Shown: piece by piece, positions 3,614-60,583 of the stretch | Position numbering within the stretch: the stretch's first letter is position 1 | Layout of the letters: each line of letters opens with the position of its first letter | Source: Lytechinus pictus | Lineage: Eukaryota | Assembly: GCF_037042905.1 (NCBI RefSeq) | Contig: NC_087250.1 | Coordinates: forward strand, 13,084,001 to 13,148,000 | Reading direction: 5' to 3' | DNA length: 64,000 bases | Notes under the pieces: model-generated | The model's database searches: none | What the model saw: only the letters and a program-made list of their open reading frames with translations | What the model was told of the DNA's origin: nothing | Made by a program: the position numbers and the translations under genes

Positions 3614-4642
3614 TCAAACATGGCTCTCATATAATATTGATTTATATCTACGGCCATGCCCATGCCGAGTTGGTCTTCTGCCATCTTCTTCCCCCATAAT
3701 GCCTATTATCGATACTGGACGGGGTGTTTCTTCTGGGTATTCACTTCCAGAGGCCACATAAGCAGACGACGGACGCACATTACGCTTTGCTGGTTTCGGT
3801 GCAGGCGTCGGCACTGGACCGTTCCTGCGTGAGCGTCGATAATCCTGTTCGTCTTGCAGTGACATTACTGGATTGTCGTACGTACCATCGTATGTGTGGC
3901 GGTATGACGGTGGCGGTGGACGGGCGTGGTTTTGACGACGAGCGACGACGGCGTAATCGTGGGGCGTGGAATAACGGTCATGCGAACGCCGCTCGTAGGA
4001 GTTGTGATGCGCACGCCTCTCGGGACTTCCACTGCGGTTTCGTTCATCATGCCGATTGCTGTGACGTTCGCTTCTTTCTTGACGTTGACCGTGTCTTCTG
4101 ACATCGTCTTGATTATCATCGTTTACCGCGTCGGTCCTTACCGCTTCGCGATTCGTCTCTGTATGGTCTTCACCGCGGTCGCGTGGTACGTCACCATTAG
4201 CCGGTTCGGATGGCGTGGCGGTAGCCTCGGCTGCCGTTTCTCCCTCATTCCGCCTCGTATACGAGGTCAACTGCACCTCCTCATTCGTCAGAAACTCGGT
4301 CTCAAATTCGTGCGAAGCTGTCAATGTACCCGACATCAGCTCCCCGTTCGCTGTAATCGTCTCCTTCCTCATTCTCTCTGCGATTTCGGGGATGATCTTG
4401 TCCAAGCGTCGAATGTCGCTCTTGTTACGCTCAACTACGAACCAAAGGATGAGAGTGCAGAGTACGGCGAGGACGACGACGACTGCTAAGCAAGCGTAAA
4501 TGATCGCTTCCTGGTGTGTGTTGTGACCGGGGTCCTCATGAGGAGGTATAGCTGCGCGCTCGTCAGTTTCTCCGAGGTATTGTGACGTCACCCCTTGGAC
4601 CGATAGCAGGAATACGGGTAGCACGACTAGAAACGATTTCAT
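3614..4642 (-). CDS. Uncharacterised type I single-pass membrane protein (342 aa): signal peptide, tiny ectodomain, TM helix, long disordered cytoplasmic tail with PPxY and C-terminal class I PDZ-binding motif
   Basis: GC-rich 342-codon ORF in AT-rich background; signal MKSFLVVLPVFLLSVQGVTS; TM AIIYACLAVVVVLAVLCTLILWFVV; RPPPPSY; ends YESHV; splice acceptor (polypyrimidine-CAG) at 4753-4755 on minus strand. Confidence 0.88.
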   Translation of the reverse strand: MKSFLVVLPVFLLSVQGVTSQYLGETDERAAIPPHEDPGHNTHQEAIIYACLAVVVVLAVLCTLILWFVVERNKSDIRRLDKIIPEIAERMRKETITANGELMSGTLTASHEFETEFLTNEEVQLTSYTRRNEGETAAEATATPSEPANGDVPRDRGEDHTETNREAVRTDAVNDDNQDDVRRHGQRQERSERHSNRHDERNRSGSPERRAHHNSYERRSHDRYSTPHDYAVVARRQNHARPPPPSYRHTYDGTYDNPVMSLQDEQDYRRSRRNGPVPTPAPKPAKRNVRPSSAYVASGSEYPEETPRPVSIIGIMGEEDGRRPTRHGHGRRYKSILYESHV

Positions 4643-5765
4643 TTTGTCGGTTGTACAATGGAGTTAAGGAGAGACACACAGTTTACGTCCGGGTTGGTTA
4701 TTGGTTTCACGGGGGAAACTAGGGTGAACGAGGTCTACAACAACGATTTCATCTGTGTATGGAAGGAAATATAAAGGAAGAAAAAAAATCGATTAAAAGG
4801 CTATGCGTAAAAATACTTGTAAGCCTGGAAAAGGTTGACCTTAGCTTATTTATTGTACTTTACCCCTTATAATATTAATTTGGAGGATAATTTCACAACA
4901 CCTTTCCAGTAATCATGAAATTTGTTCTTGACCAATAAGTGTAGGCCTATGGACCTATTGATATACTCCGGTTATTTATCTTACATAACCTTCAAGCGAA
5001 TAGATTGCAAAGCGGTATCCACTGTTAGTGTGTTTACTTCTTTTAGAATAAGCCTATAAAAGTTTGCCACTGTTCGCAGGCCATTGTCACTTTGAGACCG
5101 GGAACCGGTTTGCTTCACCGACTATTATCCAACCATTATCCGCCGGATATCCGTTTCAACCTTGAATAACAAAGTGGTGCTGTCAAAATAAGGCTGAAAA
5201 GTGACAGTTCAATATTTTATGTAGTTTGTAATAGTTCACGTGTGCAATTTTGTATGTGCATGTTATTGTAATCTTAAAATGTCTCTCTTTTATCAGGGGC
5301 GCGAATTGCTAGTTTGTTTTTCACCTCATTTGCATATTGTGTCTGAAATTAGAAATATTGTTTTCATCTTCTAACTCACTCTCCCCTCTGAACCCAGTCC
5401 AATATATTCCCAGGTTGCAACATTCAGATTGTCAACTATCGTATGTTATGATCGCTTTCTGTTTAGTACATTGTATCTAACAGTTTTTCCACATAAAATC
5501 CGTATGTTAGTTTTAAAATATGTCATATTCTCTTCACTGTAAGTTTGTATAATCAAGCAACTGAATTTGTATATGTATCTCAGATTTCTTGCTAGTTTAC
5601 TTAAATTTTTATGTCCTTTATTGATTATATTTTTATATTGTAACATTCAACTGTTTATTTGACATAATATATGAGAAATAAGTACACTTGAATTGAACTA
5701 AATGATAAAGAACAGTATTGTAGCACGTAAACAGAAATTCCTTTCATAAACCTATATCATGCCGT

Positions 5766-10782: not shown

Positions 10783-12294
10783 CAGTGGCGTAACTACGGG
10801 GGGGCATGGGGGGGCACGTGCCCCCCCCCCCCCCAATCGGCTGGCCAAAAACAAAAAAAAAACGGGAGAAAAGGGAGAAAAAGAGGGAGAAGAATTTATT
10901 GTACATTATAATGTTATATTATATTATATGTTGTGTTATATTACATAAGAATTATTTTTTTTCATTACTTTATGAAACATAATGTGCTCAGGGTCTATTT
11001 GTTCATTATTCCTGGTACAAGCATTGTCTGTTTAACGAGATATACATGTACAATCATGTTGTACCAAAACGTCCTGTTTTCAAGTCAATATGCACCAAAT
11101 ATATATCATCGCACTTCAAGTTATTATTGTTTTATGTAGTGACATATGCTTCTTTTCATGACTACTTAAAGTGATAGCCCCATTTTAAGGTCTGTATATA
11201 AAAAAAATCCTTGTTCGTGTTCGTGCTTACGTTCGAATTAGTGGATTGATGAGATTTGTCTGCTCTTCATGAATTCCCTGAAATCGGTCCTTAAAATGTC
11301 TCTTTTTCTAATGTAAATATCAAAAATTTTCAGCTCGCGCTTCGCGCTCGCATCATTTGTTTAGTGAAATACGTATGGTCATAGTAGATTCCTACAAACA
11401 AGCCTTAGAATGCCCCTCTTCAGATCTGAATTTCCTATATTTTCAGCTCGCACTTTGCGCTACTGAGATGCGTATGATAATCATGATTACTATGACTACA
11501 AAAAGCTCTTCATGTGTTTGAATGTGATTCTAACAAAATCAGCAATCGCTTGGCACTCGCATTGGATGACTATGGTGAGATATGTATACTCTTAATGGAT
11601 TAAAAAAAAGAAATAGTCCTTAAAATGTCCCTGTTTGGGGTCAATATATACAAAAATTTTCAGCTCGCGCTTCGCGCTCGCATCATTTTGTACGTGAAGT
11701 ACGTATGGTCTTCGTAAATTCCTACAAACAAGCCTTAGAATGCTTCTCTTCAGGTCTGAATTTCCTAAATTTTTAGCTCGCGCTTCGCGCTCGCAATATT
11801 TGATTAGTGAGATGCGTATTCTAATCATGATTACAATGACTACAAAAGGTGTTTCATGTTTTCTAACAAAATCAGCAAGCGCCTGGCACTCAAATTAGAT
11901 GAGTATGGTGAGATATGTATTCTCTTATTTGATTTCTAAAAAATAATCCTTAAACTGTCTCTGTTTGGGGTCAATAAATACAAAAATTTCAGCTCTCGCT
12001 TCGCGCTCGCATTGTTTGTTTAGCGAGACAGATACGTATTTTTTTTTTTATTTAATAGCTTATTTTGACCCTTTTTAGGTATGAATTTCAAAAATTTTCA
12101 GCTCGCGCTTCGCGCTCGCATCATTTGATCAGTGAGATACATTACATATCCGTTTAATGGCACAGTCCTTAAAATGTCTCTATATAAGGTCAATAGGCCT
12201 ATAGCTGGTAATTGAGCGCGCTTTGCGCGCTCACTGAGCGACTCAAAATTTTTGCTGGTGCCCCCCCAATGCCGTGACCCACGGTACGCCACTG
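10783..12294. mobile_element. Non-autonomous hAT-type element with internal tandem subrepeats
   Basis: TIRs CAGTGGCGTA / TACGCCACTG; 8-bp TSD TTAGCAAT / GTAGCAAT (7 of 8); about six copies of AAATTTTCAGCTCGCGCTTCGCGCTCGCA in a ~330-bp higher-order repeat. Confidence 0.85.
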
Positions 12295-20244: not shown

Positions 20245-20548
20245 GGAGCGTCGTGGCCCAGTGGATTAATCTCCAGACTTTGAAACGGAGGGTGGTGGTT
20301 CAGATCCCAGCCAATGGCGTATTTTCCTTCAGCAAGGAATTCATCCACAGTGTGCTGCACTCAACCCAGGTGAGGTAAATTGGTATCGGCAGGAAGTAAT
20401 TCCTCAAAAAGCTGTGTGCATCGAATAGGTAGCCTAGCTTAGCCGGGTAATAATACAAGCAGGGCCCGCAGGAAGAACAGTTTTCGCAACTACAGTGGAT
20501 ATCCTGGGTAAATATACCGTTATTATTATTATAAGTATTATTATTATT
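20245..20548 (+). mobile_element. tRNA-derived SINE (tail type A)
   Basis: A-box TGGCCCAGTGG, degenerate B-box GGTTCAGATCC, core CACTCAACCCAGGTG..AAAT.GGTA, (TTA)n tail. Confidence 0.85.
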
Positions 20549-31647: not shown

Positions 31648-32121
31648 TTAAGGTAATACGAAAATGGGCAAAATGTATTTTTTTTTTCATCATAAAAGCA
31701 TTGTTAATGGAACCACTACATTTGTGTTTAATTTCATCTAGGTAGTTACGACCTTCACACATTATACTGTCTTGTACACTATAAACTCCTACATTTAATA
31801 CACACTTGTACAGTAAGCACTATTAAATAACATACACACTTGGTGTTCTACAATATGTATTATTAGGGCTTCGTTTACATAATAAACACATACCCTACAC
31901 GAAAGTTAGACATTATTTATTTTAAGGGGATTTTTACCCAAATCACCTCAACTTGGAAGAGAAAACACCTTTTTCCCCCTTTTTCTTACCCCCAATTCAC
32001 ATCCATTCGAAATTAAAACCATTTCTATGGTAGATTCTTCCCCTTAATAAACCTGCACCTCCTGTATGAAAATCGATCCTTGTCCACTGTTATACATCAT
32101 TAACACTGTTATATATTATAT

Positions 32122-32415
32122 GTGGAAGCGCTGTGGTGTAGCGGTTCTGACTCTCGCCTTGTAATCAGAGGGTCGTGTGTTCGAATCCCACCATGGCCTA
32201 GCGTCCTTTGGCAAGGCGTCAATCCACAATTTGCCACTCTCCACCCAGGTGTTAAATGGGTACCCGGTAGGATGCGAAAGCCTATGTAGTATGCCTAGCA
32301 ATTGAGTCTTGGAACTCTTGTTGGAATGCTCCCCAGGGAGTGGAGAAGGTGCATACATTGTATGCGGGCATGCAATGATCCGATGACCGGGGTAATAATA
32401 TATCTGTAAAGCGCG
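32122..32415 (+). mobile_element. tRNA-derived SINE lacking its extreme 3' tail
   Basis: A-box TGGTGTAGCGG, B-box-like TGTTCGAATCC, core CACCCAGGTGTTAAATGGGTACCCGG. Confidence 0.85.
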
Positions 32416-32417
32416 TA

Positions 32418-32597
32418 TGCTAGGCATACTACATAAGCTTTCGCATCCTACCGGGTACCCATTTAACACCTGGGTGGAGAGTGGCAAATTGTGGATTGAC
32501 GCCTTGCCAAAGGACGCTAGGCCATGGCGGGATTCGAACACACGACCCTCTGATTACAAGGGGAGAGTCAGAACCGCTACACCACGGCGCTTCCACT
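32418..32597 (-). mobile_element. Inverted 5' half of the same SINE
   Basis: Reverse complement of 32122-32300 with about 4 substitutions. Confidence 0.9.
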
Positions 32598-32649
32598 AAT
32601 ATTATATTATATATTCCACTAATATTATTTATCATTGCTCTGTTTTACT

Positions 32650-33481: not shown

Positions 33482-34519
33482 GATATTATCATTATTTTCA
33501 TTTTTACCTTATTTCTCATTTTCATCAACAGCATTATAACAATGACCAACATCGAACTCGCTCTCAGCTAAAAAAAAGTATAAACGAAAACAAAACTTGC
33601 TTTGTCATTTTATTTTCCCAGGGCTGAGTAGAATCCGTCTTATCACAAATGTAAGAGATACCCATCACAAAGTTATCAATACCACACAAAAAGCTTCGCC
33701 ACTCATTAAATCAAAACATATAAAGTGAAAGTGATACAGACAGTTCCTTGTACCAGTGCGGTATGGCATCACCACCTCTTAAGGAAGATGGATATTAATA
33801 TCTCGATAAAGTTAGTCTCTGTCGTATTTTTCGTTTGAGGAGTCACGCATGGATACCATCGCCGCCATCTCGAAGCCCGCCCGTGCCTCGTTAATTTGAA
33901 CACACACGATCCGTGGTTATGGTAACGCGGGACGCACTCCGATGATTCTTTGTGTTTCCCTGGAAACCAACAACGCTCCTGCCGCATAGAGAAATATAAA
34001 TCGAGAGAGAAGACACTTGTTGATGGTGATGATGATGTTGCGATGCCGATATGAATTTCGGCATTGTATGAATTCCATTAGTTAATTGGTTGAAGATGCA
34101 CAGGGTTACTTGTAGTTTAGACAGTATCGCAATAAATTGCTAATAATCAAGCGCTGAAATATTAATTAGCGTCCACTACTACATTTATACATATCACATT
34201 TTTTCATCCTTGGTACTTGCAAGGACAGTTGGTGGTTGTGCTTAAGAAGCTTTGACAGGTCGAAATTGCACATAATGAGAAGAGTGTTTGAAATAATTTC
34301 CAATTCAGAAATAAAAGTAAAATTATCAGAATCCAACAAACATTGACAAATGGACAACCACACAATTCTCTGAATTGAGGATATTCAACGAATGATCATT
34401 AAAAAGCGTGTACGTGGTTGCCGAGTACAATAGTTCTTCTGGAAGAACGGGCCCCCTTCTCGCACAATTATAATTCACGTGCCCTCGCAGGACCACGTGA
34501 CATTTTGTTAGGTCAATAT

Positions 34520-34576
<57 letters not shown>

Positions 34577-34952
34577 CTATATAAATGTGTGAAGTTATAC
34601 ATGTACAACAACTTTGGCAACTCTTTTATTTAAATATTTTGTGAAAGAAATGGATGAAGAGAACAATGGTAGGCATAGCTTAAATCAAGGTTCCCCAGAG
34701 CTATCTACCCTTTGGATCCGATTAACCGTCAGATAGACAGATTTTCGACACTATACAATTATAATTTCCTTTGTCGGGTGAAGATGGGTTTTGAACAATG
34801 AACAAGCAATAGCTTTGATCCAGCTGAGGCATGGCGGCTTGTCATTGTTCAAAATCCACCTTCACCCGACAAAGGAAATTGTAATTGGTATAGTGTTGAA
34901 AATCTGTCTATCTGACGGTTAATCGGATCGGGGTCGCCCTAGCCACTCACCC

Positions 34953-35024
34953 GTCTCTGTGGTCTAGTGGTTAAGGCACCGGCGTTCAAAGCTGGGGGCA
35001 CGGGTTCGATTCCCGGCAGAGACA
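34953..35024 (+). tRNA. tRNA-like gene with UCA anticodon (opal-suppressor-like; tRNA-Glu-like body), copy 1
   Basis: Acceptor GTCTCTG/CAGAGAC 7 of 7; D stem GTCT/AGGC; anticodon stem CCGGC/GCTGG, loop GTTCAAA (TCA at 34986-34988); T arm ACGGG-TTCGATT-CCCGG (one mismatch); TTTTT immediately downstream. Confidence 0.6.
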
Positions 35025-35359
35025 TTTTTCGGCATCACCAATTTTTCCAAAGGGTTGATAGCTCTGGGGAACCTTGATTTAAGCTATGCCTACCATTGTT
35101 CTCTTCATCAATTTCTTTCACAAAATATTTAAATAAAAGAGTTGCCAAAGCTGTTGTACATGTATAACTTCACACATTTGTATACTTTCTCCCATACGTG
35201 TACTGTATCAAAGCAATAGCTTTGATCCAGCTGAGGCATGGCGGCTTGTCATTGTTCAAAACCCACCTTCACCCGACCAAGGAAATTATAATTGGTATAG
35301 TGTCGAAAATCTGTCTATCTGACGGTTAATCGGATCGGGGTCGCCCGAGCCACTAACCC

Positions 35360-35432
35360 GTCTCTGTGGTCTAGTGGTTAAGGCACCGGCGTTCAAAGCT
35401 GGGGGCCCGGGTTCGATTCCCGGCAGGAGACA
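35360..35432 (+). tRNA. tRNA-like gene with UCA anticodon, copy 2
   Basis: Same fold; perfect T stem CCGGG/CCCGG; one extra G in the 3' acceptor strand; TCA at 35393-35395; TTTTTT terminator. Confidence 0.55.
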
Positions 35433-35714
35433 TTTTTTGGCATCACCAATTTTTCCAAAGGGTAGATAGCTCTGGGGAACCTTGATTTAAGCTATGCCTA
35501 CCATTGTTCTCTTCATCCATTTCTTTCACAAAATATATATATATGTGTGTGTGTGTGATGGTGTGTGTGAGAGGGTGTGTGTGTGGATGCACATACTGTG
35601 GATGTTGCATGGATTAAAAAAAAAATAGTGATAAAGATACACCAGCTGTTGAAATATATCAGTTCTTGTTCTTCTTCTATACTGTTTAGTGATATCAGGG
35701 AGTTTATTCATAAG

Positions 35715-38054: not shown

Positions 38055-39185
38055 TATTTTTTAGACTGAAATGTGCAATGCTATGCAATAAACACAGATA
38101 ATTTCAATACAAACAATTACAAGGGGCTGTGTTCCTGTGTACACAAAAAGATAACTTTTTAAATTCGGTTTTGAGACAGATAATTTCTGTTCCTTTTGTA
38201 AAAAAGAAGTTGAGTCTTACCAACATTTATTTTTTAATTGTCCTGAAGTTAAGCGATTATGGGAAGAGATTAGTAAAATATTTCAACTGAATGAACTTGG
38301 CAGTGACGTTTGGAAAACAATTTTCATGGGGATACCTGGAAATACTACAAGAGTAGCTTTAATAAACTGTATTATATTCTTAATCAAGTATATCATTTTT
38401 AGTTCAAGAAAACAGGGAATATTGCCAACCGTACAGAAAGTGACACATTTGGTTAAAGAGTATAGAGATACGGAATATCAAATAGCGTTTAAAAAGGGGA
38501 AGCTGGGGGTGCACTTAAGGAAATGGGAATAAAGCAATGCATACCTTTCTTAATACTATGGATGTATTGGTTGCTTCATTTTGTTTCTGTTTTGTTTATT
38601 TGTTCAAATACAGATAGTTGTACCAGAGCAGGATGCATTGTGTGTGGGTGTACGTGTGTAGATGGATGTGTGAGTTTTGTGACGGGGAAGAGGGGGGGGG
38701 GGAGCTGTGAGTGGTGGTGAGTTGAAGTGAGCTTGTGTGAGTGTCTGGGGAGAGAGATGAGGGGGGAGGGGGTATGGGGGTAAGGTGAGTGTGTAGGGAC
38801 GTTTTAGGATAACCTTCCTCTAATTAACCTTTAAAATAATCTTTTATCCTTTTTTATTTCTTGTACAATTAATATGTGCAAAAGAAATTATTTCTATTCT
38901 ATTCAGGGAAAAAGTCAGTTTTTACAAAGTACGTTTTTTTTTGTGTCGATTGATACGGGTTTTTCCCCTCTGCTTTCACATTGTTATAGAAGAGAAATTT
39001 GGCAGTTTAATTTCATTTGTAATCATTTAAAAAATATTCGTAATCTCATTGATATTGATATATTTATTTGTTTGATTGTTTATTGATTGTATACATACAA
39101 AGAATCTTTATTTATATGAATTGTGATTGTTAACTTATTGATTTGAAAGAGGAAGAAAATAAAATATTATTAAAAAAAAAAAAAA
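38055..39185 (+). mobile_element. 5'-truncated L1/Tx1-clade LINE (ORF2 C-terminal zf-RVT region, 3' UTR, poly(A))
   Basis: Reads ...FQYK...CSFCKKEVESYQHLFFNCPEVKRLWEEI...HLRKWE* (stop at 38532); AATAAA and poly(A) at 39158-39185; 7-bp TSD GTTCCTG (38048-38054, 39186-39192). Confidence 0.85.
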
Positions 39186-44475: not shown

Positions 44476-45246
44476 ACAGGCAAGAGAACCATATTTTTTA
44501 ACAGTTATTCTGCTGATAAATGGTAAACTGATGTGCTAGGATTTGCAAGTGTTAGTAGATGAAGATTTCTAACGATATGATTTATCTCGAAATGAGCGTG
44601 AAATTTTAGTTTTTCTCTTATTCATACATGTAGAAAATAGAGTATTTAAATGGCAAAATTTTAGTAAAAGAAGAGTATGATACAAACAATCAAAATAGAC
44701 ATGTGACCTGAACATTCGATGGCATTGGACATTTCATATTCTCAAAAAAAAATGGTAAGAATACCACGAATTTTTTTAAAATAATTTTAAAGTGGTGTTC
44801 TTATTCATTTCAATCTGGATGAGGTAAAATCAAAGAAACAACTCAACAGATCATGGATTTTTTTTTTAATGCCAGTTTAAGCTTCATTTTGAATTTCAAA
44901 AATAATAACACTTTTTTTTGCATTACATGTAAAGGGCCTTTTAATCAGCCACGATGAGCCTCAAATTGTACATAAATAAATCAAAGGAAGTCTTGCATTT
45001 CCTCTTCTTTTACTTTATTCTTTCCACAAATAATGGAAATATATTGTAAAAAATTGAAAAAATAAAATAATTTCTCTCATATGAAAATATATATTGGACT
45101 CAGATATTTTAATTAGTATTTTTTGCTATTTTGAATGAGTTTGAAATAGAATAAATGCACAAGATGTATAAATTCTTTTTGGTAGGGACATTCATGATGA
45201 CTGATTCATACAAATAGTTTCCTCTACTTTCTTCTGATGCATATTT

Positions 45247-46067
45247 GAAGAGTTTAGTTGCAAAAGGGGTTAGGTCCACTTTGGACCATACCGAGAAAAA
45301 CCATGTTTTTTATTCTCAGTTATTGCAATCTTCTTATGAGAAACTAAATTGCCATGATGTACTACCCTATCATGTGAACATAAAATTGGGTATAAAAGAA
45401 ATCTACCTGTCTTCAATTCTTATATATATAATTTTTAAAGATTGTCATTGTGGACCTTACCCCTTTTACAAGTTAACTGAAATGAATCCAATCTTTTTTT
45501 ATTAACAATGTGATTTTTATTTGCCACTTTCATTTACGTGTTCATTTGAATTTCAAATTTTCTTTGGTATCATCAGAGTGACTAAAAATTTAGAGGTTTA
45601 GAGACAGAAAACAATAAAAATTTTGAAAAATGGACCTAACCCCTTTTGACAAATGAGTTCTTTGGATGAGTTTTGTTGCAAAAGGGGTTAGGTCCACTCC
45701 AAGAAATTCATTTCTTAAATTCTCCCATATTGCAATATTCTTATGCGAAACTGAATTTTCATGATACCCTTCCATGAGAACATAAAATTGGGTATAAAAG
45801 AAATCTACCTGTCTTCAAATTTGTTATGATATTCTTTTCCCAAAAAAAATATGTGTGGACCTAACCCCTTTTGCAACTAAACTGAAATGGACCTAACCCC
45901 TTTTGAAAAAAAAAGGGATTTTTCTTTGCCAGTTATTTCACTTTTTAATAGGAATTTCAACTTTCCTTTGGTATCATCTTATAGAGCTACTAAAAATCTA
46001 TACATTGAGACATAAAAATCAAATTTGATGAAAAATGGACCTAACCCCTTTTGCAAGTGAGCTCTTC
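45247..46067. mobile_element. Tandem-dimer MITE with 4-bp TSD (Sola-like)
   Basis: Outer TIRs GAAGAGTTTAGTTGCAAAAGGGGTTAGGTCCA / TGGACCTAACCCCTTTTGCAAGTGAGCTCTTC; TSD ATTT; internal right-end/left-end junction at about 45660. Confidence 0.75.
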
Positions 46068-47074
46068 ATTTAATAGTTTATACATTGCAAAAATATGTGT
46101 AATTTGAATATTGTAATTTATTTCTCGTAGATGGCTAATAATTTGTGTGTGTGTGTGTGTGTGTGTGTGGATTTAGATGATAAACAAATACCAAAAATAT
46201 ATCGGAAACAGTGTTTTGCAAGGCTCATGCTAATGCGGTTGTATTCTATGTGATTGTTGCTTTTAATAGAAGAGGAAATTCATGTGAAAATAGTAATGCT
46301 CATAAATGCTAATGCGACTATTAAGTGAAGTATTTTCTCCACCCAATCCATTTGCTAGTCACCTCTCGAGTCAATAATGAGATTGATGCTATACGAATTC
46401 GAGGTTGAGGGCCACAAATTAAGCAGTTTCTATTAACGATCCTGGAAGGATAATTGCAATATGTTTGGGATGACCATTCCACTCTATTTACCTTCGAAAT
46501 TTGTTTTCCCCTAAAATAAAAAAGAAGCGTTCAGCAAACTGTTTAGATGGAGGATTTTGATCCCCCAAAAATAAATACTAAAGTAATTAACATCCCTTTG
46601 CACCCTGAGTTCTGTATATTTTTTTTCCACGTGTCGATAGATTTCGATTTGACTGATCGAAAAGTCCATAATCATTATTGAAAAAATTAGAGGACAAAGA
46701 AGAAGAAGGAGGAGGAGGAGAAGAAGAAGAAGTAATTATATGCAAAGTTGAAAAGAAAAAAATCATGAAGAGTTGAGGTTTTACATATGGCTACACTTAG
46801 CTCAATCTTTCCCGAAATGAAAAGAAAATACTCGATATTATCATTGGTAATATTCAGTGTTACAACAATACATAATTTTGTAAATGATTTTTTTATTAAA
46901 TGAGGTCGTAGATGCGACTATTACCAATATCAATATTATTATTATCACAATTACTCTTACTATTGTGGTTATCATTATTGTTAGTATTATTATATTATCA
47001 TTAATACATTAATAATATTTTGGCATTATTAATAGCAGAACTTAAAAAAATTTGTAGATGAAGTAGTAGTTATA

Positions 47075-49896: not shown

Positions 49897-50682
49897 ATTT
49901 CATCATTATTACAAGCACTATTGTAGCACCAATATTCTCGTAAAATTACACCGGCCATTGTCATCTTTATCACTCTTATATTCCCTGCTATTGTAATTTT
50001 CATCATAATTTCCCTTTCCTTCTATCGCATTTGTCTATTTCAGATTGGTTTTTCATCGCCTCTATTCTGATGCTGAATTCCGCTGTTCGGTCCCACATGT
50101 TGAATTTGCCGTCATAAAGCACACAGACCCTAACGTTACCGACCCGAATAAAGATCCACCTGCTATCCCTTGGCATCTACAATAAGGCATTCTCCATGTG
50201 CGACCATTCGCGATCGATTGGCGCACTAACGGCAGGACTCTGACTCAACGTTTATCAATCATGCACTACTTGTCGTTTTCACCGCGCTGGTAAGTCGTGC
50301 GACACCCCGCTTTATTTAGAGAAGCAACAGCTGACTGGAGAACGTTATTGATTTCATTTCGTGTTAAAAATTTGAAGTCACATTTATTGGATAAATAATA
50401 ACGGTCTATTCAGCGCATTATCAGCAAAGATTACTTAGTGACTGCTTTACCAAACGTGCTGTCTGCAGGCCATTCTCGTAAAGGGATTCGTTTATCGGGG
50501 AACCTGATGCGACTTTTTCGCCAATAGATATTTCGAAACTATATATCACCATGTAGAAAACTAAAACCATTATGGTGTTTCTTAACCTGTTGTAAAGCTT
50601 TTCTGAATGTAACCGTAAATGTTATTAGTTACTACCGACGTGCCTTAATATATAAAGATTTAAAATACGATACCAAATTGCC

Positions 50683-52369
50683 ATGGATCAATTGCTAAAG
50701 TTATCCAGAGGACGTTTGAAGTTCTTTGGTTTACTCATTGTAGCAGCGGTGGCTATGCCTGCTTCAGGTGTTGACGTTGGGAAAGGAGCTGTTGAAGTAT
50801 CGCTACCCGCTGTTACCGATGAATTGCCAGAGCCCGAGGGCGTCCTAGATGGAGATTGCATGAACATCTCTTTGAAGAACAGCGATTGGAGCTGGAATGG
50901 CGTCGATGGACAACAGGCAGAAGGAGAAACGGCACTGCTGCTCAGGAGACTGATCAAAAGACTAAACAATGCGACTCAACGAATCCACGATGACAATCCC
51001 AATCTGAATTCGACACAGTTCATAAATGTTGTAGCCAGTCGCTCTTCCCTGTTGTTGTTGAAGATCAAATCGTTCGCCCGTGTCTTTGGCCAGATAAACT
51101 CCTTCTATGGATACACTTGCCGGAACGGAAAGGATCTCCTGCGACATGCCCTCAACAGAAACATAACCGCAGATGAATCTGAAGATTTCGATGACGAGCT
51201 AGCTGAAGAGATAGATGCTGCTATCCATGAGGTTATGGGTGATGATAATGGGGATGCAGAAGAAGGCGGTGAGGCGGAGGAAGAGGAAAGTGGTGGGGAA
51301 GAAACGGAGCCAGGTCGTGGTCCAGGTCCGAAACCTAACAGCAAATCACTTGGAATGCAGAACAAGACACTTGCCATACGAAAAAGAAACAAAATTGCAG
51401 TCAGGATGTTCATCAAGAAAGCTCTCGTTGCTTTGTTCCTGTCACAACATCGGTTCAAAGGGTCTAGGATGTCTCTGCAAGAAGTTATCCAGCGACTTGG
51501 AGAAGATGGGAGACTCGGAAGCATAGACCAGAGCAAGCCGAGACACGTAGGTGGAAGGAATGAAACCGCGGATAGCACGGAGGTAGCTGGGGATGATGAC
51601 GGCTTGACAGGCATAATGGGTGAAGACTCAGACGAGATTATGGATATCTTCGAATCCGTAGAATGGTTTGATGACGAGGGCGACAACTCCGACGTTGAAG
51701 ATGAGGAAGAGGTCCGCAGGAAATTCACACTTGAAGGATACCTGCTCAAGCTTATGTCTGTGTATGTCAACAAGAGTGCTTCGTGCGCGAGACGGGTCAC
51801 CAGGTTCATCAGGCAGAGAGCCAAGCACCTACCGAATAAGACAGACGATGAAGAGGAATTCACTGATCTCTGGAAAGATTACATGAAATTGGTTCGTCAG
51901 ATGAATGTTTCGCGGCACCAGCAGGCCAGCGATGGTTCACTGCGTAACGGAGGGGAGAACTCTTCGAGCGAAGTTGAAGTGCAAACTGGGAATCCCCTGC
52001 AGGAGGATGGACCTCTTGTCTCCAGGATTCGTAACATCACGCAACGACTCGTTGAAGGTAAATGGAGCGGAAAGGGGGGCATCGAGGGTCGCTTCTATGT
52101 GGTTGTATTGAAAATGGCTCAAGTGATCAATAACTGGGGAAAGGCAGGCTTCTTGACCAATGGAACATACTTCGACGCTAATTGTTCGCCTGGTCGATCG
52201 TCGAGTGAGGGTGCCACGACAACTTGTCGCATATGTCCCACAGATGCCTCCATTGGGAACCTTCGAATGCTTCTCTCTGAGCTAGATGACACCATCGAAG
52301 AAGTCTATGATGATATCAGGGACAGAGTGGATAGACTGACTAAAGGAACACCAAAAGAAAAACTGACAG
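50683..52369 (+). CDS. Large uncharacterised secreted glycoprotein, coding exon 1 (signal peptide plus repeat domain 1)
   Basis: GCCATGG Kozak; signal MDQLLKLSRGRLKFFGLLIVAAVAMPASG; GC-rich ORF until donor ACAG|GTAGGA, after which composition becomes intronic; phase 1. Confidence 0.85.
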
Positions 52370-52926
52370 GTAGGACTAAATCTCATCATTTATCATTCCA
52401 ATGCATCAGTACATTTGCCAATTATCTCTCTCTCAAACTCATTAGGCTATCTACTTTTTGTAAAAAAAACCAAATACATGTAAATATACGCATAACCCTA
52501 CGGGAAGGTAAAACTAAAATCTATAACAACAAAATTATTTTCAACTTTTTTGGTAACTTCATGTTATAAAACATGACCAATATGCGTATTATTGTTTTAA
52601 AATATTGCCTAATAGATGTTTTACTCTAAGGATACAACATATTGTTCATGTACATATATGTAATTAGCTTAATTGGCGCAAATGCTGTGGATCATCATCA
52701 TCATTGTCGACTTTCATATTCATTCCATATTATATGTGGCCCGTTACCCCCAATGCCAACGATAAGTCGCCAAGGAGGTTTATCTGTACATAAACTAGTC
52801 CAAATAGTAACTTGGTGTTTATGAACTAAAATTTCGAAATCATTCTCGTCTCAAAGAGCAATTTTGAAACTGAATAAAATACGATCAACGGGAGTTTCTT
52901 TGACACCTCATTTTCCAGAGTTCCTG

Positions 52927-57505: not shown

Positions 57506-57782
57506 GGAGCGTTGTGGCCCAGTGGATTAGTCTTCGGACTTTGAAACAGAGGGTCGTGGGTTCGAATCCCAGCCATGGCGTAATTTCCTTCAGCAAGAAA
57601 CTGATCCACAATGTGCTGCACTCAACCCAGGTGGGGTAAATGGGTACCGGTAGGAAGTAATTCCTTAAAAAGCTGTGTGCGCTATGAACGCCTAGCTTAG
57701 CCGGGTAATATAGGAGCGCCTTGAGCACCTAACAAGGTGGATATGTGCGCAATATAAATACCCTATTATTATTATTATTATT
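57506..57782 (+). mobile_element. tRNA-derived SINE (tail type B)
   Basis: A-box TGGCCCAGTGG, B-box GGTTCGAATCC, same body as 20245; tail GAGCGCCTTGAGCAC...GTGCGCAATATAAAT + (TTA)n. Confidence 0.88.
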
Positions 57783-58361
57783 CATTTATTTTCTTGTTGT
57801 TTTGCTTTCAAACAAGCTTACTTGTTTAAGGGTTTCCTCCTTCTTAAATCAAATATTTTGACAGAGTATGCAATGCCTTGTTCATCACGAAGCCCTCTGT
57901 GGCATTTCCTTAAATCGTTAAGTTGATAAGAGTGGTGATGATCTTTCGAATGTCACTCTATCATTTTCTTGTTTTTTTGTACTACACATTCATTTCGATC
58001 ATTTCAATAACATTTTTTCTGACCCAGCATTTTCGTAAAATTGGTATTTTTCATTAAATCTTCGACGCACGTTTTACTATCTATTTGCGTTTTCATAAAC
58101 ACTTCAAATTTGCATTACTTTTACCTACGCTGCTACGCATTATTCGACTATTCTAACTTAAACAATTCTCACTTTACTTTTTATCTGGAAATTAGCACGC
58201 GTACCTTTTCCTTCGTTAACACAACACTTGTTTACGCTCGCATCTAATCAATCTTTTTCAGTTTCATTGCATAGAATATTAACATAAAAATGTGTTTTTA
58301 GTCCCGAATTGTCACATTGTTCAGCGGTCAGATACATTGGAATATTCCTAATTTTTAACAG

Positions 58362-60583
58362 GGATGTTCACAAAACCACGGCGACTTCTCAATACGCACG
58401 GCGCCGACTGCTTCGCCCTAACCTTCGCAACAAAAGACTGGCGTCTGTTTCAGTATGAGAGCCTCAGTGGAAAAACGAAGGATGGTGGAGACGAAGGTAA
58501 TAGTGATGAGGGCGAAACTGATTTGGAAGAGGATGATGACGAGGAAAACATTGGTGATGTCGCAGACGAAAACGATCAGGGAGAGGCAAATGCGACGGCA
58601 AATGTAGAAAGCGAAGTGGACCAGAAAGGGACAGATAGAAAAGATGGTCACCAGGCCCGTAGGTCACCTTTTCCACGTGCAAGGAATATTCTTAACAGCC
58701 AAAGTAGACAGATTCGGATGATCACTAGGGATATTACTATTGGAAGGATTGTGCGGCTTATTGTGAGGCAATCTGCAGTTCGCATGCTAAAGGTTCTGAC
58801 CTTTGAAAGAGTTTTTAAAATGATTCACAGATCAAACAGTTTTATTTGTACGAATGCAGAGCCTCTCATGAGGGAAGCACTAGGGCCTAACGCAACATAT
58901 CTAGAATTGTCAAACATGTCGGCAGTTCTAAAGGCTATCAATCGAACGATAGCCGAAGTTCGTAAGGAAAGTACCCCAATTTCGAGCTCCAGTTATAGCA
59001 AATCTGGATCCGTGTCATGGTTAACCGACACTGGTCGGTATCAAGACCGTGATCGGGAAGGGTCAGAACCATCAGGTTCACTAGAAGATCCCAGGCCAGA
59101 GTCAAGAGAAGGGTCTCCTTCATCGGGTTCACGAGAACGCATCGGACCAGAGTCAAGAGAAGGGTCACGCCAAAGTTATGAGAGTGGATCGAGCGATGAC
59201 GGCTACAAAGCAAAGAATCCAATGAAGACACTAGAGGTGGAGGAAAGACAAAGTCTTTTGCAACGATTCAGGCAAGCAGCAATAATTGGATTATTCTCTG
59301 CGCCTCGGAGAATAAATAACCAAAGACTGTCTCTTTCCGAGTATGTAGCGATGTTGGCTTCTTTTTGTCAACATCAGAGACGTGGACCAAACTCAGTGTT
59401 CCGTGACTTAGACAAATGGTTACAAGAATATAGGGAGAATGTGAATGCACGTAACTATACCATTAACAAACACAACAAATCACTTACATTCTTAAAGCCA
59501 GGAGTACGTCCTCGAATTATCACATCAAGGCGAGAAAGGTATCGTCATGGCCAAAGAATGGAGATTATTACTTCATCCTCTTTCAAGTTTTGTTTGCCTG
59601 ACGATATTCATGGCTACTGCGGTAACAGGGAGGAACGCTACGGTAAGGTGATTGATAGATTTATAGGAATGTCTAGCAGTGCCAACACATCAGTTGTAAA
59701 GGAAGTAGACAGAGATAAACACGAGAAGGCTAAGGCAGATGAGACGAAGATGGAACATTTTACCATTGAAGAATTTCTTTTAGAGCTGATGATATCCATG
59801 TCCACGAAGACTTCTTCCTGTGCGAGTAGAATTAATCGTGCCTTGCGATTACATGGAAAGCCTGTGTTTGGTGTTCCCAGAATGAAAAAATACAATGGTA
59901 CAAGAGCTAATCCGGAACCTCGTAGTGCAAAGGGCATTGCTGTAACGCGGACGCCCGGGAAGAAATCGGACACACCTGGATCTGAACATTTTGTCTACAA
60001 ACATAACAAGAGTTCGAAGATGTATAAGGAGTACTTGGAGAGCATGAAATCTTGCCGAGGATCCGACTTTATCGAACGTCGGCTGGAAGGCCACACATGG
60101 GGTGAAACCTACCAAATAAGCTTGTTCTACTTCAAGGTCTTAATGAAAATTTCAGAGATGATAGACATATGGGGACGTTCCATGCGGGAAGGAGGAGAAA
60201 CCTTATACAATACATCATGCCAACAAAACGAAGACGGCGACGTGTTAACAACATGTAAGGTATGTGTTAGAGAGTCCGCAGTCGGTACTTTCGAAGATCT
60301 TGTTGGCACTATCGACGACATCCTTAGATCAACCAAGGAGACTTTAGCAACGGGTGTCAACGACTGGAAACAGCTCGGGGTATCTAAAAATAATGGAACC
60401 TTTTGGCAAAATGGTGATAAAGAAAGAAAGGGTCAAAAGGGTGACGATGACGAAAGGAAAGGAGCTGAAGGGAAAGGGACAAGCGAAGAAACTGATGGAA
60501 TGCCAGGCAGAAGACCTGATGGCAACCCCGGAAGAAACCCAGGAGGAAGATCAGATCACAGAACAGGTAAATACTATTCATAA
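58362..60583 (+). CDS. Large uncharacterised secreted glycoprotein, coding exon 2 (repeat domain 2); ends at stop 60583 or splices at donor 60566
   Basis: Acceptor TTTTAACAG|GG is phase 1 and joins exon 1 in frame (G+GG = Gly, then MFTKP...); colinear homology to exon 1; candidate phase-1 donor ACAG|GTAAAT at 60566/60567. Confidence 0.85.

Follow-up and report, generated by a model that had tools for sequence, protein, structure and literature searches.

The Insertion and Its Three Copies

The window, meaning the whole 64-kb stretch of DNA analysed here, is eukaryotic and AT-rich, and it contains tRNA-derived repeats and the zf-RVT remnant of a LINE. By self-comparison, one insertion in a microsatellite can be resolved into three parts: a full unit (copy A), a shorter direct copy (copy B), and an inverted copy (copy C). 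The features that matter for what follows are these.

34516-34583, no strand: left target, (TA)n of ~34 units, its last bases overlapping the end of copy C (repeat scan)
34578-34807, minus strand: copy C, inverted and 5'-truncated, equal to unit positions 34837-35184 with the 3' tail, minus 118 nt (alignment)
34715-34716, minus strand: deletion joint in copy C with a 2-nt TC microhomology, removing unit positions 34930-35047 (alignment)
34804-34807, no strand: head-to-head junction of C and A with AAGC microhomology, within the 5' arm of an 8-bp hairpin
34804-35210, plus strand: copy A, the full 407-bp unit (alignment)
34953-35024, plus strand: tRNA cloverleaf in copy A, anticodon UCA (34986-34988), with A and B boxes (RF00005)
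35025-35029, plus strand: T5 run, Pol III terminator-like (sequence)
35042-35046, plus strand: second T5
35207-35226, no strand: perfect 8-bp hairpin spanning the tandem junction of A and B
35211-35536, plus strand: copy B, in direct orientation and tailless, 96% identity with A (alignment)
35360-35432, plus strand: second cloverleaf, in copy B, anticodon UCA, its acceptor stem containing an additional G (RF00005)
35533-35590, no strand: right target, (TA)n for ~12 nt, followed by (TG)n/(GA)n (repeat scan)

Copies A and B align at 34804-35135 versus 35211-35543 (96.1% over 333 nt, spacing 407). Copy C falls into two parts, one being 35046-35184 inverted (34578-34716; 97%, 139 nt) and the other 35244-35336 inverted (34715-34807; 96%), and the 118 nt lost between them include the entire tRNA plus 23 nt on either side. 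Exactly four bases, AAGC, are common to C and A at their junction, and the end of copy B, at ~35536, overlaps the target by ATAT. The two outer arms stop at different unit positions, 35128 versus 35179-35184, that is, ~50 nt apart.

The initial annotation had the overall plan right, namely a unit of ~407 bp, a direct copy lacking the 3' part, and an inverted copy (34578-34807) joined through AAGC. Its boundaries for the unit (34803-35208) and for the direct copy (35209-35535) move to 34804-35210 and 35211 to ~35536, and it had missed the gap in the inverted copy that takes out the tRNA. It had also placed the insertion between (TA)n tracts, which is correct for the long tract on the left; on the right there is only ~12 nt of TA before (TG)n begins.

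Apart from TA repeats, the two flanks have no k-mer of 6-12 nt in common, so no target duplication is visible. Poly(A) is absent from the insertion, and its longest open frame is 66 aa (128 aa with TGA read through), which upholds the earlier statement that there is no TSD, poly(A), or ORF. Neither strand of the insertion has a purine run of at least 10. We also agree that a canonical hammerhead core is missing: neither Rfam (E up to 10) nor two pattern scans revealed one, the second of these scans using a descriptor run without a positive control.

The Repeat Family in Public Sequence Data

Four public runs, picked from 24 listed and representing organisms A, B, and D, were mapped on the unit reference 34804-35245; run X20 (share 0.08) and organism C were left out. 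The matches (9196 contig pieces in organism A, 916 in B, 29 in D, and 2110 RNA reads in A) are not copy numbers, and in each run they cover 30/30 bins of the reference. The unit is a copy of an abundant, non-coding, 407-base repeat family. The head-to-tail joint, 35210 to 34804, is crossed by 140 RNA reads with 56 different starts; such a joint arises from genomic tandems as well as from a circular monomer RNA.

The 3' ends of family members fall into two zones, which bound a tail.

35118-35135, plus strand: upstream zone of recurrent family 3' ends; the end of copy B falls here
35136-35184, plus strand: tail of ~50 nt reaching from one end zone to the other; C and A have it, B lacks it
35176-35184, plus strand: downstream zone of family ends, inside an AC-rich stem-loop of the tail (fold prediction)

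Among 21 of the 639 entries there are 12 loose ends on the 3' side, 9/12 of them within 35118-35184, and 7 of these 9 continue into (TA)n or (CA)n, with organisms A, B, and D all represented. Organism A, for example, has 49 contigs ending at 35176 and 25 at 35184, and organism B has 6 at 35135 and 8 at 35184. Copy B ends in the upstream zone and copy C in the downstream one (35176-35184). Candidate ends at 35025, 35029, 35124, and 35131 were excluded as clipping at known indels.

Strand changes also recur in the family, with five distinct pairs of places among 15 of the 65 joints, each seen in one contig. The 118-nt deletion of copy C is missing among the same 15 of 65 and is therefore probably a local event at this locus. 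Records that continue into unlike sequence make up shares of 0, 0, and 0.01 in the three contig sets, a scarcity that is a weak sign because most contigs are short. The unit behaves as a self-contained family, with no sign of an adjoining ORF. Of the proposal that it is a non-autonomous pLTR fragment of a PLE (Penelope-like element), the insertion pattern stands; an origin as a fragment of a coding PLE finds no support in these shares or in a unit that joins to itself head-to-tail.

In the RNA run (organism A) depth rises from ~420-450 in the left arm to ~910 at 35074-35103, an increase toward the 3' side that staggered 5' truncation would give. Both directions are about equally represented, and there are no sharp starts or ends. 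Contig depth over the tRNA and body also exceeds that over the left arm, ~4-fold in organism B, where the left arm carries indels that depress mapping. A common 5' end at tRNA +1 was considered for this jump and rejected, as the raw reads have no step there. The organism D run (X15), with 29 contigs and few variants, suggests a small, uniform copy set in that organism.

A Single Template Lineage

All three copies carry T at 34920 and at 35087, and both letters are rare in the family: by depth, organism A (run X1) reads C in 99.2% and 98.4% of cases, respectively. Two family-rare letters in every copy point to one template lineage, and the simplest reading of the alignments is that A, B, and C would be one insertion event from it. 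Private substitutions (7/407 in A, 3/326 in B, and 2/225 in C, or ~1.3%) fit one age (p=0.54). As the source of the template, a homogenised array and a circular monomer both fit.

The tRNA Module

The UCA tRNA-like module proposed earlier is well founded, with RF00005 scores of 53.8 bits at 34953-35024 and 49.3 bits at 35360-35432. In copy A it is 72 nt long and has a 7/5 fold; its 7-bp acceptor stem is perfect, and its variable loop measures 4 nt. Selenocysteine tRNAs are recognised by a long variable arm and an extended acceptor-T helix; the 4-nt loop, the 7/5 fold, and RF00005 as the best Rfam family rule out a tRNA-Sec identity here, and the "SeC" label given by ARAGORN most likely reflects the anticodon. 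The selenocysteine link drawn in the initial annotation is accordingly not supported; the Sec-coding Naiads of PMC8557442 come from spiders and clams and use SECIS elements.

With a T5 run directly behind the tRNA (T6 in 405/698 RNA reads), a Pol III transcript should stop at ~78 nt. In organisms A, B, and D most copies appear to carry UCA, because no anticodon position is among the best-supported variants and the five differences of the dominant organism D contig lie elsewhere. Variants occur at 1/72 sites inside the tRNA versus 29/335 elsewhere (p=0.04, from 40 of 133 entries), which may be taken as a weak sign of constraint. As to a parent isotype, BLAST against phages gave weak Gly and Cys matches only (best E 0.05 among 25 of 110 matches), too weak to assign one; the D and T arms may resemble those of eukaryotic tRNA-Glu. 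The G at tRNA position 32 is unusual.

A Left Arm Predicted to Mask the Cloverleaf

34804-34952, plus strand: left arm, the predicted mask, with imperfect complementarity to the tRNA and to the flank 3' of it (fold prediction)

The plus strand of the unit is predicted to fold as a long imperfect hairpin (z -4.1, 0/100 shuffles as good). Shuffling the 149-nt left arm alone costs ~29 kcal/mol (z -6.7 and -6.6 for copies A and B, 0/150), and the effect persists with the tRNA removed (z -4.0 and -3.9). The predicted partners of the arm are the D arm, the T arm, the acceptor strand, and the 3' flank. On its own, the tRNA folds near the cloverleaf (-29.6 versus an MFE of -30.4 kcal/mol). The predicted cost of forcing the cloverleaf within the unit is 14.6 kcal/mol for copy A, as against 21.4 for the majority form, and the acceptor-pair probability drops from ~0.75 to at most 0.001 once at least 25 nt of upstream sequence are included. 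Given this pairing of the arm with the tRNA and 3' flank, the cloverleaf is predicted to be absent, that is, masked by the left arm, in long transcripts. A monomer starting at tRNA +1 is predicted to fold so that its two ends lie side by side.

The complementarity of the left arm escaped a strict BLAST self-comparison (best E 0.098). A looser aligner recovers it (4 and 0 of 1000 shuffles), with a centre chosen after the fold was known. No selection on the long hairpin is seen among 31 variants, of which 10 keep a pair, 7 break one, and 14 are unpaired, and so the left arm may be a mere fossil of an earlier head-to-head insertion.

Probable Mobilisation by a Penelope-like Element

Our best explanation, to which we assign a probability of about 0.65, is that this non-autonomous 407-nt family is copied in trans by the RT + GIY-YIG protein of a microsatellite-targeting PLE (Naiad- or Neptune-like) and inserted by way of two cDNAs. 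As no autonomous partner was found, we infer PLE mobilisation from the way the unit inserts: it works like a non-autonomous PLE, an assignment made by insertion pattern.

That pattern consists of a partial tandem forming a pLTR-like repeat, an inverted 5'-truncated copy at its 5' end, and a microsatellite target without discernible TSD. There is also a one-sided extension with recurrent end zones, although at ~50 nt it is longer than the 30-40 of PLE papers. Naiad insertions, as described by Craig et al. (2021, PMC8557442), are 5'-truncated partial tandems with an adjacent inverted copy and a 30-40 bp tail at one end; they have (TA)n targets and no canonical hammerhead, and non-autonomous Chlamys elements have head-to-tail copies. 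The PLE-type pattern read from this locus in the initial annotation agrees with this description and recurs at the level of the family. Biochemistry is also informative: in Frangieh et al. (2024, PMC11167929), both target strands are cut and extended by a purified PLE protein, whose reverse transcription begins at two neighbouring internal positions that delimit the tail. Initiation there is reported to proceed without target homology, whereas here the ends sit at CA or TA microhomology with the target.

The insertion could have arisen as follows. The template would be either a circular monomer or a long transcript that runs through a head-to-tail array; it must span at least 733 nt (A + B), for which a Pol III transcript ending at T5-6 is insufficient. 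By computation, this RNA would fold as the long imperfect hairpin that masks the cloverleaf. Judging from PLE biochemistry, both (TA)n strands would be nicked and each would prime one cDNA, starting at one of two internal zones ~50 nt apart; one cDNA from each zone would leave a tail at one end only. Two short cDNAs would then be joined head-to-head through AAGC, one of them having skipped 118 nt between two TC dinucleotides, and this product is what the sequence displays. The UCA anticodon, on the PLE explanation, would have come down from the family founder.

Several searches were made for a partner. No PLE ORF is present in the 64-kb window, judging from 25 frames of at least 120 aa, five of which were scanned against Pfam with one match (zf-RVT). 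Scans of viral, metagenome, and prokaryote collections for an autonomous PLE with the same 3' end gave chance matches or none. The 72 viral-contig loci (16-mer) and one metagenome locus (19-mer) were set aside as chance, with no extension past ~31 nt; the 19-mer included a family-rare letter, which makes that metagenome scan a weak one. A 21-mer was absent from the viral and the prokaryote contigs alike, and none of three 12-nt motifs occurred in the supplement of PMC8557442, whose long cells were searched in part.

A more elaborate reading, tentative and on balance unlikely, makes the family a rod-shaped, possibly circular, ribozyme-free RNA parasite of PLEs with a switch. In DNA the unit would offer a Pol III tRNA, possibly releasing a short UGA-reading tRNA; in full-length RNA the arm would hide the cloverleaf from RNase P/Z, so that the template would survive for reverse transcription.

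Other Explanations

The tRNA invites two explanations of a different kind. A LINE that targets microsatellites, or else DNA repair, might have spread a tRNA-derived SINE-like or satellite unit, its inversions arising by twin priming or fold-back. The A and B boxes, ends placed at CA or TA microhomology with the target, and a contig depth that is higher over tRNA and body than over the left arm (~4-fold in organism B) all speak for it. We nevertheless consider it decidedly unlikely: the tRNA sits 149 nt inside copy A with T5-6 directly after it, poly(A) and TSD are lacking, the raw RNA reads have no step at tRNA +1, and the left-arm indels of organism B account for depressed mapping. Moreover, twin priming is not known to duplicate sequence, as the inverted copy here does. 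It is very doubtful, too, that RNase P or RNase Z cuts multimers at the tRNA into monomers, which may circularise, the tRNA thus replacing the hammerhead of retrozymes, much as the initial annotation had suggested in making it a processing signal in place of a ribozyme. A unit size near the 170-400 nt of retrozymes, the lack of a hammerhead, an isolated tRNA close to the cloverleaf (-29.6 versus -30.4 kcal/mol), variants that avoid the tRNA (1/72 versus 29/335 sites, p=0.04, in 40 of 133 entries), and a monomer from tRNA +1 that folds with its ends together would suit such cutting. What disfavours it in silico is a cloverleaf predicted to be unfolded in long RNA, at a cost of 14.6 (copy A) or 21.4 (majority form) kcal/mol and with acceptor pairs at a probability of at most 0.001 behind at least 25 nt of upstream sequence. 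Read ends do not pile up, the deletion in tRNA-less copy C lies off the tRNA edges and is no precise excision, and a precise tRNA-less joint is missing among 15 of 65.

DNA-level mobility, either as a foldback/MITE-like element or as a non-autonomous rolling-circle element (Helitron/Replitron-type), would explain the inverted outer arms, the perfect 8-bp hairpin, and a weak self-complementarity, and tandem copies are expected of rolling-circle copying. Outer arms that end at 35128 versus 35179-35184, an inversion point that varies among loci, and the lack of a TSD make it highly improbable. We give next to no credence to the idea that a PLE containing in-frame UGA codons obtains a functional UGA-reading tRNA from the element. 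It has on its side an intact cloverleaf with its own T-run and the apparent UCA majority in organisms A, B, and D; against it are a fold that is not tRNA-Sec, the unusual G at position 32, and the fact that no linked ORF or SECIS was seen, and repeats are known to give excess "suppressor" calls. In two rust genera, for instance, all predicted tRNA-Sup-CTA genes derive from Helenus, according to PMC10886601. Since the rest of the repeat is predicted to hide it, the tRNA probably serves neither for cutting nor for selenocysteine; on the PLE explanation it most likely matters as DNA (A/B boxes, open chromatin, read-through transcription at source loci) or is a passenger.

Relation to Known Elements

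Like Naiads and Chlamys elements (MRC1; PMC8557442), the unit forms partial tandems with an inverted 5'-truncated copy, targets microsatellites, and lacks both a discernible TSD and a canonical hammerhead; with the non-autonomous Chlamys elements it also has in common the multicopy head-to-tail insertions. It too is tailed at one end only, but the tail is ~50 nt long, and it differs further in carrying a complete tRNA gene. Poseidon PAc of Anolis (PMC11167929) likewise has two internal end zones bounding a tail, an AC-rich stem-loop at the distal one, and AT-rich targets, but it is a coding element with a hammerhead, and its initiation does not involve target homology. Non-LTR retrozymes (PMC7229834; bioRxiv 10.64898/2026.07.22.740005) resemble the unit as short, non-coding tandem units with strongly structured RNA and a proposed dependence on PLEs, although the type I hammerhead that defines them (PMC7229834, PMC4209133) is absent here.

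Helenus/TRIMp3 (Kojima 2024, PMC10886601) is also a non-autonomous retroelement with a tRNA-like sequence inside the repeated unit that inflates tRNA and suppressor counts. It has a PBS and PPT between two LTRs and, in animals, a 4-bp TSD, whereas our unit is without a purine tract, a convincing PBS, or a 4-bp TSD and has variable ends, microsatellite targets, and inversions. SINE2 elements are abundant, short, retroposed repeats whose tRNA has A and B boxes, as here, but in them a 5' tRNA reads into the body and there are an A-rich tail and a TSD; the unit has neither tail nor TSD of this kind, and its tRNA is internal and fully folded, with T5-6 behind it and a complementary arm facing it. 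MITE and foldback DNA elements have fixed terminal inverted repeats and a TSD, unlike the outer arms here, which end ~50 nt apart without a TSD.

Parasites that bear a tRNA have been described for LINEs (SINE2) and for LTR elements (Helenus), and the switch reading, if true, would add their PLE counterpart. None for PLEs appeared in the literature surveyed at the level of titles and abstract openings, with Repbase and Dfam outside the survey. What this locus contributes is the evidence for a single template, the tRNA-less inverted copy, and the predicted masking arm. The insertion supports the two-cDNA model of PLE inverted repeats, and the unit offers a short natural template for PLE priming tests. 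It also flags a source of false tRNA-Sec and opal-suppressor calls in these genomes.

Other Features of the Window

The remaining features are independent observations. The LINE remnant lies at 38155-38532 on the plus strand (zf-RVT, Pfam E 5.7e-08). Two open frames of 637 and 743 aa (50656-52569 and 58352-60583, plus strand) have no Pfam match and are distant paralogues (21% over 580 aa, E 7e-17), and a 349-aa frame on the minus strand (3614-4663), also without a Pfam match, begins like a signal peptide and contains a single hydrophobic stretch. A diverged tandem pair of ~405 bp each at 45244-46068, with short inverted repeats at its bounds and a (TG)13 nearby at 46144, has no similarity to the 407-bp unit. 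A further tandem at 11314-12138 comprises ~2.5 copies of a 330-bp unit. At 32111-32607 there is a palindromic element whose 190-nt arms are 96% complementary and separated by 117 nt, with a degenerate tRNA-like head near the outer end of each. Further degenerate tRNA-like heads, probably SINEs, are found at 57513-57573 and 20253-20311.
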